DNA of 31,826 nt from Longimicrobiaceae bacterium (GTDB lineage: Bacteria; Gemmatimonadota; Gemmatimonadetes; Longimicrobiales; Longimicrobiaceae), in contig DATAAL010000832.1 of the NCBI GenBank assembly GCA_036260145.1, positions 1-31,826 of the forward strand, given 5' to 3'. Positions 5,625 to 9,817 of the stretch are shown here, one piece after another. The translations under genes and the position numbers were made by a program. Below the pieces are notes generated by a model. That model had not been told where the DNA came from and ran no database searches. It worked only from the letters and a program-made list of their open reading frames with translations. Numbering within the stretch: position 1 is the stretch's first letter; each line of letters begins with the position of its first letter.

Positions 5625-7111
5625 AGCCGATCCCAGGGGTGGAAGGCACGTTCACGATGAGACGCAGAACCGGTCGGAGGCGGGCCCTCGGGCTCGCCTT
5701 TTTCGCCGCTACCGCCGCGCTGCTCGTCCCGGAGCCCGCTCCCTCGCGGCAGGTGCAGGCCCCGCTGCAGGCGGCCGCGGCGGGGATCGTCGGGGGCTCG
5801 GCGGACGAGTGGAGCATCCTGGCGTGGTCGCTGGACCGGCGCCGGCCGCTCTTCGCCATCAACGCCGACAGCATCCTCATCCCGGCCTCCAACAACAAGG
5901 TCTTCACCGCCATCTGGGCGCTGGACGTCCTGGGGCCGGACCACCGCTTCCCTACCGACCTCCTCCTCCCGGGGCCGGTCCCGCAGAACGGGGTGGTGCA
6001 GGGCGACATCTACCTGCGGGGCTCCGGCGACCCGGCCTTCGGGTACCCCGAGTTCGACCGCGACCCCATGGAGCCGCTGCGGGTCATGGCGCGACAGCTC
6101 AAGGCGCGCGGAGTGCGGGTGGTGACGGGCGGGGTGGTGGGGGACGCCAGCATCTTCGACACCCTGTTCTACGGCCCCGCGTGGCCGGCCGACACCGGGA
6201 ACGGCGCGGCCTTCTACGCTCCCACCGCCAACGGCCTCCCCTTCCAGCGCAACATGCTCTGGGTCAACGTGCAGACCGGGGGGGGAAGGGTGGCCATCGT
6301 GCGGGAGCCGGACGTGCCGGAGATCCCGGTGATCTCCACCGTGCGGTTGGGTGGGAGCCGGGGGTGGGCGGTCCGCAAGCCGGACGAGGACACCATCCGC
6401 GTCAAGGGAGGGGTGTCCGGGCGGGGGCCGCACCGCTACCCCGTGGGGGTGGCCGACGCATCGCTTCTGGCCCCCGCCGCGCTTCGGCAGGCGCTGCGCG
6501 AGGAGGGGATCCAGGTGCGCGGGGCGGTGCGCCGCGGCAGGACCCCCCGGAGCGCCAAGCTGATCCACCGGCGCCTCTCCATCCGCCTGGCGGACATGAT
6601 CCCCAAGCTGAACCGGGACTCGGACAACTTCTTCGCCGAGCACCTGTGGAAGGCTGCGGGGGCGCACACGGTGGGAATCGGGAGCTATGTCCTGGGCGGG
6701 CCCGCCTCGGCCAAGTTCTTCATCGAGCGGGCGGGGGTGCCACACGGGGAGATCTGGCAGGCCGACGGGTCGGGTCTGTCGGCGCAGAACCGTAGCAGCG
6801 CGCGGGCGCTGGTGAACGCCCTGGCCTACGCGGACCGGCGCCCGTGGCGGGAGGAGTTCCACCGGTCGATGGCGGTGGCGGGGGACCGGGAGGGGACGCT
6901 GCGGAGCCTGTTCCGGGGCGGGGCGGCGGAGGGGAACCTGCACGCCAAGACAGGCTACATCCGGGGGGTGCGGACGCTCTCCGGGTATGTGAAGACGCGG
7001 AGCGGGGAGAACGTGGCCTTCTCGTTCCTGTACAACGGGCGGAATACTTCGGGGGCGCGGGGGGTGCAGCAGCAGCTGGGGGAGCTGATCGCGAGCTACG
7101 CGGGTCCGTGA
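5621..7111 (+). CDS. dacB: D-alanyl-D-alanine carboxypeptidase/endopeptidase (PBP4, peptidase S13)
   Basis: SxxK (PASNNK), SxN (DSDNFFAE), KTG (AKTGYI), plus GDIYLRGSGDP and DGSGLS. ATGA overlap at 5621; alternative start at 5657. Confidence 0.93.
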   Translation: MKPIPGVEGTFTMRRRTGRRRALGLAFFAATAALLVPEPAPSRQVQAPLQAAAAGIVGGSADEWSILAWSLDRRRPLFAINADSILIPASNNKVFTAIWALDVLGPDHRFPTDLLLPGPVPQNGVVQGDIYLRGSGDPAFGYPEFDRDPMEPLRVMARQLKARGVRVVTGGVVGDASIFDTLFYGPAWPADTGNGAAFYAPTANGLPFQRNMLWVNVQTGGGRVAIVREPDVPEIPVISTVRLGGSRGWAVRKPDEDTIRVKGGVSGRGPHRYPVGVADASLLAPAALRQALREEGIQVRGAVRRGRTPRSAKLIHRRLSIRLADMIPKLNRDSDNFFAEHLWKAAGAHTVGIGSYVLGGPASAKFFIERAGVPHGEIWQADGSGLSAQNRSSARALVNALAYADRRPWREEFHRSMAVAGDREGTLRSLFRGGAAEGNLHAKTGYIRGVRTLSGYVKTRSGENVAFSFLYNGRNTSGARGVQQQLGELIASYAGP

Positions 7112-7154
7112 GGGGGTTCAGGTCGGTTTCGAGGTGATGTGACGGACCGCTCCA

Positions 7155-7270
7155 GAGCCCCGGAAACAGCCCCGGGTCTCTTCCGCGGGCTGCGCGAGCC
7201 CCGCGATACCACTGCGGGTCTCCCGCAGCCGGAGGGAGCTTCACCGATACCGCCGGTGAGTCTCCCTCCG
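7155..7270. repeat. Three tandem imperfect palindromes (REP-like) with a shared GAG-C...T-CTC core
   Basis: A 7155-7180 gagccccgg-aaacagcc-ccgggtctc; B 7188-7230 ggctgcg-c-gagccccgc-gataccact-gcgggtctc-c-cgcagcc; C 7230-7270 cggagggagcttcacc-gataccgcc-ggtgagtctccctccg. Confidence 0.75.
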
Positions 7271-7336
7271 CACATCTTTTTATGGGTACTGCGAAACGGA
7301 GAACCGCGGAACCACAGGACTGCCAGCGTGGACCTT

Positions 7337-7384
7337 ACCCTCCCCTGCCTGCGGGGGAGGGTGGCGCGCAGCGCCGGGTGGGGG
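7337..7384. repeat. Two-hairpin intergenic repeat of the CCCTCCCC...GGGGAGGG-TGGCGCGCAGCGCC-GGGTG type
   Basis: accctcccc/ggggagggt stem (7337-7345/7354-7362), then ggcgc-gca-gcgcc and gggtgggg. From recollection it resembles a widespread bacterial intergenic palindromic repeat; not verified by search. Confidence 0.55.
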
Positions 7385-7474
7385 CCGCCGTTGCCATTGT
7401 CCCACAGCCCCGCCCCGCCTATTCTCCCGCGCTCCCGTTCCTCTCTCGCGAAATGACCCGCATCCCTACGGCCG

Positions 7475-8578
7475 TTGAGTTCCGCTGATCCCGGCACCCC
7501 TTCCCTCCGCGACCGGCTCCTGGAGCGCATCCGGGCCGGGACGCGGAGGGCGGTCCCCGACGAGGAGTTCGACGCGCTGGCGCGGGCGGTGTTCGCGCAC
7601 CAGTACGCGCGCAACACCCCCTACCGCCTGTTCTGCGAGCGGCGGGGCGCCACGCCGGCGACCGTGGGACACTGGACGGAAATCCCTGCCGTCCCCACCG
7701 ACGCCTTCAAGGCCGCGGGGCTGGTGTGCGGGGACCCGGCGTCCGTCCGTACGGTGTTCCGGACCAGCGGGACCACGGCGGGCCCGGAGCGGCGGGGGGA
7801 GCATTACCTCCCCGACCTGGCGTTCTACGATGCGGCGCTCCGCGAGAGCTTCGCCGCCCACCTCCTCCCGGAGGGGGGGCGGATGCGGATGCTCTCGCTG
7901 ATCCGGCCGCCGGAGGAGGTCCCGGACTCCTCGCTCTCGCACATGGTCGGCGCGGTGGTGCGCGACCTCGGCGCGCCGGGGAGCGGGTACTTCGTCGGGG
8001 AGGTGGGGATCGACCACGCCGCGTTCGGGGCGGCGCTGCGGGACGCGGAGGCGCGGGGGGAGCCGGTCTGCGTCCTGGGCACCAGCTTCGCCTTCGTGCA
8101 CTGGCTGGAGGCCGTGGAGGAGGCCGGGGAGCGCTACGCCCTCCCGACCGGCTCGCGCATCATGGACACCGGCGGGTTCAAGGGACGCTCGCGGGAGGTG
8201 TCGCGCGAGGAGCTGTACGCGGCGCTGGGGGAGCGGCTGGGGGTGGGGACGGAGTGGTGCGTCAACGAGTACGGGATGACGGAGATGAGCTCGCAGTTCT
8301 ACGACGCCGTCGCGGGGGTCCCCGCCCCCCGCCTCCACCGCGCCCCGCCCTGGGTACGCTCCCGGGCCGTGGACCCGGAAACGCTCGACCTCCTCCCGGA
8401 GGGGGAGACCGGCGTCCTCCGCCACTGGGACCTCGCCAACCTACACTCCGTCATGGCCATCCAGACGGCGGACCTGGGCACCGTCGCCCCGGAGGGGGTC
8501 CGGCTGCTGGGGCGGGCGCGCGGAGCCGAGGCGCGGGGGTGCTCCATCGCCATGGACCAGTTCCTGGGGGCCTTGTAG
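7475..8578 (+). CDS. luxE: Acyl-protein synthetase, LuxE family
   Basis: IPAVPTDAFK, FRTSGTT (P-loop-like), LGTSFAF, IMDTGGFKG, NEYGMTEMSSQFY, and C-terminal LLGRARGAEARGCS with the acyl-accepting Cys. The TTG start is approximate. Confidence 0.88.
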   Translation: MSSADPGTPSLRDRLLERIRAGTRRAVPDEEFDALARAVFAHQYARNTPYRLFCERRGATPATVGHWTEIPAVPTDAFKAAGLVCGDPASVRTVFRTSGTTAGPERRGEHYLPDLAFYDAALRESFAAHLLPEGGRMRMLSLIRPPEEVPDSSLSHMVGAVVRDLGAPGSGYFVGEVGIDHAAFGAALRDAEARGEPVCVLGTSFAFVHWLEAVEEAGERYALPTGSRIMDTGGFKGRSREVSREELYAALGERLGVGTEWCVNEYGMTEMSSQFYDAVAGVPAPRLHRAPPWVRSRAVDPETLDLLPEGETGVLRHWDLANLHSVMAIQTADLGTVAPEGVRLLGRARGAEARGCSIAMDQFLGAL

Positions 8579-9781: not shown

Positions 9782-9817
9782 CGCGGGAGACCCGGGAACA
9801 GCCCCGGGTCTCCCGCG
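9782..9817. repeat. Perfect 15-bp palindrome, fourth member of the 7155-7270 family; possible bidirectional terminator
   Basis: cgcgggagacccggg-aacagc-cccgggtctcccgcg lies between the convergent stops at 9754 and 9866. Confidence 0.8.

Follow-up and report, generated by a model that had tools for sequence, protein, structure and literature searches.

The window, that is, the whole 31,826-nt stretch of DNA analysed here, is contig C832 of a 5.87-Mb assembly of 844 contigs (71% GC, 86% complete; G000 below, or the window's own genome). It contains a spacer, between a Peptidase_S13 (dacB-like) gene and a LuxE-family gene, that holds three adjacent hairpins belonging to a composite repeat element (Table 1). 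Positions 7140-7290 are predicted to fold into exactly these three hairpins, at -78.7 kcal/mol and with z = -5.6 relative to shuffles; the opposite strand of the hairpin region folds similarly. A sequence-only reading had reported GAG-C and T-CTC arms, a fixed C/T mismatch, a shared loop and covarying stems in the three hairpins, all of which were borne out.

Table 1. Parts of the composite repeat element and associated features in the window.
Feature	Position	Strand	Remarks
dacB stop codon	7109-7111		
Leader, G/T-rich and C-poor, from the dacB stop to the head	7112-7143	+	composition conserved, sequence not
Composite element, one copy: head, three hairpins and tail	7144-7325	+	about 180 bases, non-coding
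Conserved head GGACCGCTCCA	7144-7154	+	columns invariant or nearly so in the 36-copy alignment
Hairpin 1 (hp1): GAG-C / CCCGG / loop AAACAGCC / CCGGG / T-CTC	7155-7180	+	covariance-model E = 1.3e-5
Hairpin 2 (hp2): outer stem GGCTGCG/CGCAGCC, core module 7196-7222	7188-7230	+	covariance-model E = 4.7e-10
Hairpin 3 (hp3): outer stem CGGAGG/CCTCCG, core module 7236-7264	7230-7270	+	covariance-model E = 0.0024
Tail: CACATCTTTTT, GGG, then unpaired WACNRC repeats TACTGC, AACCGC, AACCAC	7271-7325	+	
Second repeat family: CCCTCCCC/GGGGAGGG hairpin, then TGGCGCGCAGCGCCGGGTGGGGGC	7338-7385	+	separate from the three-hairpin unit
Solo hairpin (fourth copy), GAG-A...T-CTC subfamily	9782-9817	+	loop AACAGC; between convergent genes
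Module core: GAG-C, 5-7 bp stem, 7-9 nt loop, complementary stem, T-CTC			the three window hairpins
Module formula: GAG-C / variable stem / AAACNNCC / stem / T-CTC			

The CCGC of the head pairs with GCGG at 7186-7189 and forms a clamp around hp1 (7147-7189); in the 36-copy alignment the clamp (columns 9-12 against 51-55) is paired in 97% of cells. The core of hp2 has the stem CCCGCG, the loop ATACCAC and a G.T closing pair, and its outer and inner stems covary in 12-16 of the 36 copies. The core of hp3 has the stem TTCACCG, the loop ATACCGC and a single T.G wobble beside the mismatch. The leader is rich in T (30-50%, against about 14% genome-wide, in upstream profiles of 45 copies from the own genome and 71 from a related genome, G006), and its information content stays below 0.5 bit per position until about 17 nt before hp1 (99 copies of the complete genome G007).

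A fourth copy with a perfect stem had been noted 2.6 kb away, and it belongs with the others. A covariance model derived from 63 hairpins located elsewhere, with neither hp1, hp3 nor the fourth copy among them, was run over the whole 31.8-kb window and ranked the four hairpins as its top four matches (E = 4.7e-10, 1.3e-5, 0.0024 and 0.0024), with the next at E ≥ 0.1. The solo hairpin is a perfect 15-bp palindrome, matched at 9787-9812 with E = 0.0024 on the plus strand and 0.1 on the minus strand; given its GAG-A...T-CTC core, the C/T mismatch is replaced by an A:T pair.

Across the family the module is 25-32 nt long and comprises an invariant GAG/CTC foot, the C/T mismatch, an inner stem of 4-8 bp that is free in sequence yet always paired, and a WACNRC loop. 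The modules are set into a unit with a constant order: leader, head GGRCCGCTMCA, hp1, linker TTCCGCGGG, hp2 within its outer stem, CGGAGG, hp3, CCTCCG, CACATCTTTT, GGG and, finally, two to five unpaired WACNRC motifs. Arrays contain one to three hairpins, never more than three, all co-oriented on one strand with centres 40-42 nt apart, and span about 125 bp. The loop motif is strongly enriched in the tail, with 1.64 WACNRC per 50 nt in 74 own-genome tails, compared with 0.13 for the genome as a whole and 0.09 for the opposite strand, and 2.6 per 60 nt against 0.05 in G007; the tail is covered by the consensus of the nhmmer model. The modules are surrounded by conserved sequence (head, linkers, outer stems and tail), and the second repeat family is often appended, forming a fixed mosaic. 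MITEs have terminal inverted repeats and a target-site duplication; here the head bears no relation to the tail, and 38 flanks show no duplication, although the ends of the element are fuzzy. Neither sharp ends, nor a target-site duplication, nor a target motif could be defined from copy flanks and profiles. At many of the loci L164-L262 of G007, the AACGGCG repeat of the tail pairs as the 5' arm of one more long, GC-rich hairpin, with a 3' arm ending in CGCCGTT, and so gives a terminator-like structure behind the element, 40-90 nt past the tail.

The element is one of many. An iterated nhmmer search started from window positions 7120-7339 returned 87 matches in the own genome, about 40 of them full-length units of about 165 nt and the rest one- or two-hairpin versions or copies cut by contig ends, so that the genome carries some 40 full and some 40 partial copies. 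Scans of the same genome for the hairpins themselves gave 46 hp1-type hairpins on other contigs (simple pattern), 188 GAG-C...T-CTC hairpins (structural scan), at least 137 covariance-model matches at E ≤ 0.01 among the 150 candidates scored, and 281 hairpins in a loop-anchored scan. Among the latter, 166 have the C/T mismatch and between them at least 45 distinct inner stems; another 56 make up a separate class, in which the mismatch is A/A and the foot (C/A)GT...AC(G/T). Many contigs of this assembly start or end inside a hairpin element (e.g., C68:1, C232, C437, C695:1-140, C814:1-58); the repeats thus fragment the assembly, and the copy numbers are lower bounds.

In relatives, the module pattern occurs 26-631 times per genome in nine of nine genomes of the genus (631 in G007), while the reversed-pattern control gives zero; it drops to 8-29 in three sister genera and 0-4 in the rest of the family, and is at chance level in 120 other Gemmatimonadota genomes. 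BLAST finds look-alike elements of about 160 nt in all genomes of the genus. The exact head of the window type is common only to G006 (JAFAYN01, a Gemmatimonadota MAG, the sole match of a stricter head pattern in a contig scan), with one further match in G002. The family is dispersed, and it is a non-coding intergenic repeat, lineage-specific, present in tens to hundreds of copies in one soil Gemmatimonadota genus.

Other repeats were noticed as well. The 3' motif of the second repeat family is found in 124 copies in the genome, often behind a three-hairpin element; in the dacB-luxE spacer it is missing from G001, G004, G007 and G008, and in G005 a variant lies further downstream. Two more composite repeats occur in G000 (Type 2, about 81 copies, and Type 3; e.g., C722:10440-10640 and C339/C143/C814). 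Their first hairpin has the WACNRC loop motif, an A/A mismatch and a (C/A)GT...AC(G/T) foot, and behind it come a GAG-C...T-CTC module and a small hairpin of the CUUC type. The 129 copies of the Type 2 hairpin in G007 hardly vary.

Pairing in the stems is under strict constraint. In the alignment of 36 full copies, RNAalifold predicts 36 pairs, 18 of which show double changes; 97.4% of cells are paired, compared with 84.1% in shuffles and 40-54% when the partners are slid, and 153 cells are compensated as opposed to 46 in shuffles. A census of the mismatch position in five other genomes of the genus gives C/T 2106 times, A:T 143 times and C:G 8 times, so that about 93% of modules retain the C/T mismatch. 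Its loss is nearly always a change in the 5' arm that leaves GTCTC intact. The A:T form is a propagating subfamily, with 8-44 GAG-A...T-CTC copies in each of five other genomes, and the fourth copy of the window is a member of it.

A three-hairpin element occupies the dacB-luxE spacer in six species (G000, G001, G004, G005, G007 and G008), and the corresponding spacer of G002 is an empty site. Among these copies head, linkers, feet, mismatches and loops are kept, whereas the inner stems differ as whole cassettes: for instance, hp2 has CCCGGG in G001 and CAGCCG in G007 between nearly identical flanks. The same cassettes are met again at different positions and in different species, and the foot, too, covaries (GAAC...TTTC, AAGC...TCTT). 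At another site there is one hairpin in G000 and there are three in G006, and further G006/G000 sites are filled in one and empty in the other or carry different repeats. The sequence-only reading had proposed compensatory change under selection on structure rather than simple duplication. Its first element stands, in that pairing, mismatch and loop are kept; however, since the stems change as whole cassettes at orthologous sites, the differences point to exchange between copies and not to step-by-step compensation. Much of the apparent covariation is therefore exchange of pre-paired cassettes, atop a real constraint that each cassette pair, and such swapping can mimic covariation without selection on each pair.

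The non-Watson-Crick pairs bear on which strand folds. The pair that closes the loop is G:C or G.T, with G.T found 77 times and A.C never; a closing G.T is accompanied by G as the next loop base, able to pair with the final C of the loop. This favours the plus strand, in agreement with the slight preference proposed earlier. Single mismatches inside the stem (A.C 23 times, G.T 3 times) would point to the minus strand, although a single propagated G006 allele supplies 16 of the 23. In the 36-copy alignment G.U and A.C are similarly frequent when the closing pair is left out, and internal wobble pairs give an ambiguous choice of strand. The G006 allele is an hp3 (e.g., L062, L097, L106) with the cassette CACGCCC...GGGCGCG, in which the A.C forms a second fixed mismatch two positions from the C/T mismatch.

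Copies lie in intergenic spacers at the 3' ends of genes and avoid divergent spacers: convergent and divergent spacers hold 21 and 4 copies in G000 and G006 taken together (p = 0.0009) and 30 and 5 in G007. This placement, together with the high stability of the hairpins and a short T run after hp3, is what would be expected of ordinary intrinsic terminators that resemble one another through GC-rich composition only. But in an intrinsic terminator a U tract comes immediately after the hairpin, and here the T run starts 6-9 nt past the hp3 stem, and a scan of positions 6900-7600 for sigma-70 promoters and terminators called neither. Several copies sit directly behind a separate, classic terminator, and copies occur in both orientations relative to genes, with 17 sense and 17 antisense in tandem gene contexts of G000 and G006. 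Foot, mismatch and loop are conserved over thousands of copies, with none in the reversed-pattern control; these family-wide sequence constraints already contradict the terminator reading, which we regard as highly improbable.

Orientation relative to replication was followed in G007, a complete genome in a single contig of 8,423,711 bp with dnaA at 3.127 Mb, and the replication polarity rests on this one genome. The hp1-type matches, which occur once per element (99 loci), are distributed 15+/27- to the left of dnaA and 44+/13- to its right. After merging with a second hairpin subset (the 100 of its 122 matches that were listed), the counts are 24+/47- and 61+/22- (p = 9e-7), and a change point fits best at 3.2 Mb. 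Elements are thus co-directional with replication in 108 of 154 cases (about 70%) and flip near dnaA, with the origin placed only from dnaA, coarse GC skew and gene-strand bias. Sampled GC skew has means of -0.021 to the left and +0.012 to the right of dnaA; single 20-kb windows are dominated by local gene direction, and only the means of the two sides were used. The coding-strand share flips alike, from 36% plus on the left to 61% plus on the right, and a search for a DnaA-box cluster near dnaA gave three near-matches, which is not significant. Long stretches of the chromosome (6.46-7.79 Mb and 4.68-5.42 Mb) are devoid of hp1-type elements, and in sampled 20-kb windows at 6.72 and 7.14 Mb all coding lies on a single strand, suggestive of giant gene clusters.

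In these roughly 70% of elements, the strand that bears the mismatch and the loop has the leading-strand sequence, i.e., it is the lagging-strand template. The flanking coding strands of the 99 loci, called from codon periodicity, allow gene direction to be separated from replication. In convergent spacers, in which gene direction offers no cue, 21 of 30 elements follow replication. If both neighbours are oriented against replication, the element goes with replication in 11 cases and with the genes in 6; where the neighbours run with it, the split is 35 to 12. The Type 2 hairpins of the same genome (129 copies) have no polarity (23/27 against 24/26). The 70% is modestly higher than the 62-65% of protein genes (p ~0.04), and transcribed units also prefer the leading strand.

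A rival explanation is a role as double-stranded DNA, as phased sites for a nucleoid or topology protein or as a chromosome-polarity signal in replication or segregation. BIMEs bind gyrase and IHF, and KOPS and Chi are chromosome-polarity signals. The spacing of hairpin centres would correspond to about four helical turns, orientation is polar to replication and flips near dnaA, and constraint is much tighter on the GTCTC arm than on the GAGCC arm, with 143 repairs of the mismatch on the 5' arm and 8 on the 3' arm. Yet the stem is free while its complementarity is strict (97.4% of cells paired), which points to intrastrand pairing and not to recognition of a duplex; the polarity is weaker than in known polar motifs such as KOPS, and we know of no binding protein. 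A duplex role is accordingly a distinctly unlikely explanation.

Another rival is a structured RNA. The element could be a small RNA gene family or a 3'-UTR module in which three loops and the tail show five to eight WACNRC sites to an RNA-binding protein, acting as a CsrB/RsmZ-like sponge or platform. The best argument for this is the loop motif of the tail, found on the same strand and enriched 13- to 50-fold; the fixed architecture of at most three hairpins at 40-42 nt spacing, the plus-strand loop closed by G.T but never by A.C, and the persistence of an element at one orthologous site in six species also fit, and a leading-strand preference is typical of expressed genes too. Against it, no promoter-like motif is conserved upstream in the window or in the 99 G007 copies, in which conserved promoter hexamers were sought, and several copies come right after a classic terminator. 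The even split of sense and antisense copies in tandem contexts, and the tracking of replication where genes run against it, likewise weigh against an RNA. Rfam contains no matching family: the window gave no matches at the gathering score, and positions 7100-7460 gave only chance-level matches to miRNA hairpins (E 0.7-3.8). On balance an RNA function seems unlikely, if less so than a duplex one.

The sequence-only reading had named a HUH/RAYT-type enzyme as a possible partner and had looked to clusters flanking a RAYT/TnpA(Y1) or DUF559 gene; neither expectation was borne out. Y1_Tnp (PF01797) has no match in G000 (86% complete) or in seven other genomes of the genus, including the complete G007, so that eight of the nine are without such an enzyme. 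The sole match in the nine is an IS200-like gene of G004 that is not bracketed by hairpins. This gene, with flanks of lower GC, is inserted beside a three-hairpin element (L115, G004:C23:187348-190707, at about 1380-2050). A search for Y2_Tnp, for which the positive control matched nowhere, returned no matches. DUF559 was rejected as a partner: 30 of 41 relatives have it, some of them from genera that lack the hairpins, and it is not consistently flanked by them. No REPtron-like gene bracketed by arrays was found; the genes between close array pairs are housekeeping genes (hydrolase, SDR, dUTPase, spermidine synthase, IspF, Xer-like integrase, PLP enzyme, ClpP). A literature search retrieved no paper linking Gemmatimonadetes with REPs, and RepRanger does not mention the phylum.

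The suggestion of an undescribed, dispersed REP/BIME-like family fared better and is upheld by copy number, extragenic sites and mosaic build. Like the REPs, BIMEs and REPINs of Proteobacteria, E. coli among them, the elements are extragenic palindromes, short (REPs measure 20-40 bp) and rich in GC, that number tens to hundreds and lie at the 3' ends of genes; they form mosaic clusters with other motifs, have lineage-specific abundance, are gained and lost between relatives and carry a conserved imperfection in the hairpin. They are differently built, however. A GTAG (or CGTC) tetranucleotide at the end is a criterion for REPs (PMC3733652), whereas the conserved ends here are GAGC/TCTC on the plus strand and GAGA/GCTC on the minus strand, with neither tag. 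Unlike REPINs, whose replicating unit is an inverted doublet, the hairpins are co-oriented, in arrays of at most three, and there are no such doublets; unlike BIMEs, orientations do not alternate, and all modules of an array lie on one strand. In contrast to REPs, it is the loop that is conserved and the stem that is free, and, unlike REP-RAYT systems, whose cognate RAYT (Y1 HUH) gene usually has REPs on its flanks, eight of nine genomes have no RAYT gene and there is no REPtron. In this last respect the family resembles CGTC-tagged REPs, abundant palindromes for which no dedicated transposase gene has been found (Di Nocera et al. 2013, PMC3733652), from which it differs by the absence of the CGTC tag and by a loop motif, C/T mismatch, head and tail that have no counterpart there.

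Two further systems offer parallels. The subterminal hairpins of IS200/IS605 elements (IS608, ISDra2), substrates of Y1 TnpA, are likewise imperfect and are read as single-stranded DNA on one strand, as the present hairpins probably are; these elements act on the lagging-strand template (PMC6006769), which the orientation bias of the present family matches. Unlike them, the repeats are gene-less units of 170-180 nt that lack a transposase gene, a target tetranucleotide and well-defined ends on the left and right. As in integron attC sites, structure is conserved and not sequence, and fixed unpaired bases mark the folding strand; unlike attC sites, the elements are tandem arrays dispersed through the chromosome and lack R/L boxes, cassette ORFs and an integrase context.

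The combination of strict pairing, a free stem, a mismatch fixed where foot meets cassette, a conserved loop and polarity fits recognition as single-stranded DNA, and recognition in that form would predict what is seen in G007, where the plus strand is the lagging-strand template. The family is an undescribed REP/BIME-like one that is probably handled as single-stranded DNA by a putative enzyme. The fuller account, to which we incline by a little, is a lineage-specific mosaic repeat, REP/BIME-like but differently built, that would be read as single-stranded DNA at the replication fork by a putative protein. When exposed on the lagging-strand template, the plus strand may snap into hairpins; the protein would recognise foot, mismatch and loop and copy or exchange modules, functionally like RAYT on REPs or TnpA on IS200/IS605 ends. 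Recognition would keep pairing, mismatch and loop constant, while the letters of the stem could drift or be exchanged by gene conversion. Transcription of either strand would give very stable RNA hairpins that could, as a side effect, block 3' exonucleases or read-through. More specific, and held only tentatively as a rather doubtful proposal, is a RAYT-independent system in which a fork protein reads the foot, the mismatch and the WACNRC loop on the lagging-strand template and copies or swaps single cassettes between dispersed arrays.

The family matters for annotation too: with many copies at contig ends, the arrays break assemblies of soil Gemmatimonadota MAGs, and they could pass for RNA genes or terminators. 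The family also offers a clean handle, with a strict module, a fixed mismatch and loop, a free stem and thousands of copies in nine genomes, one of them complete, and cassette exchange at orthologous sites together with replication-linked orientation makes it testable who reads the hairpin and on which strand. REP-like repeats fill the intergenic space of bacteria, and the origin and maintenance of the many families lacking a RAYT gene have yet to be explained (PMC3733652). If the proposal is true, a RAYT-independent system would be a new enzyme-substrate pair for REP-like spread and would explain how transposase-less REP families propagate.
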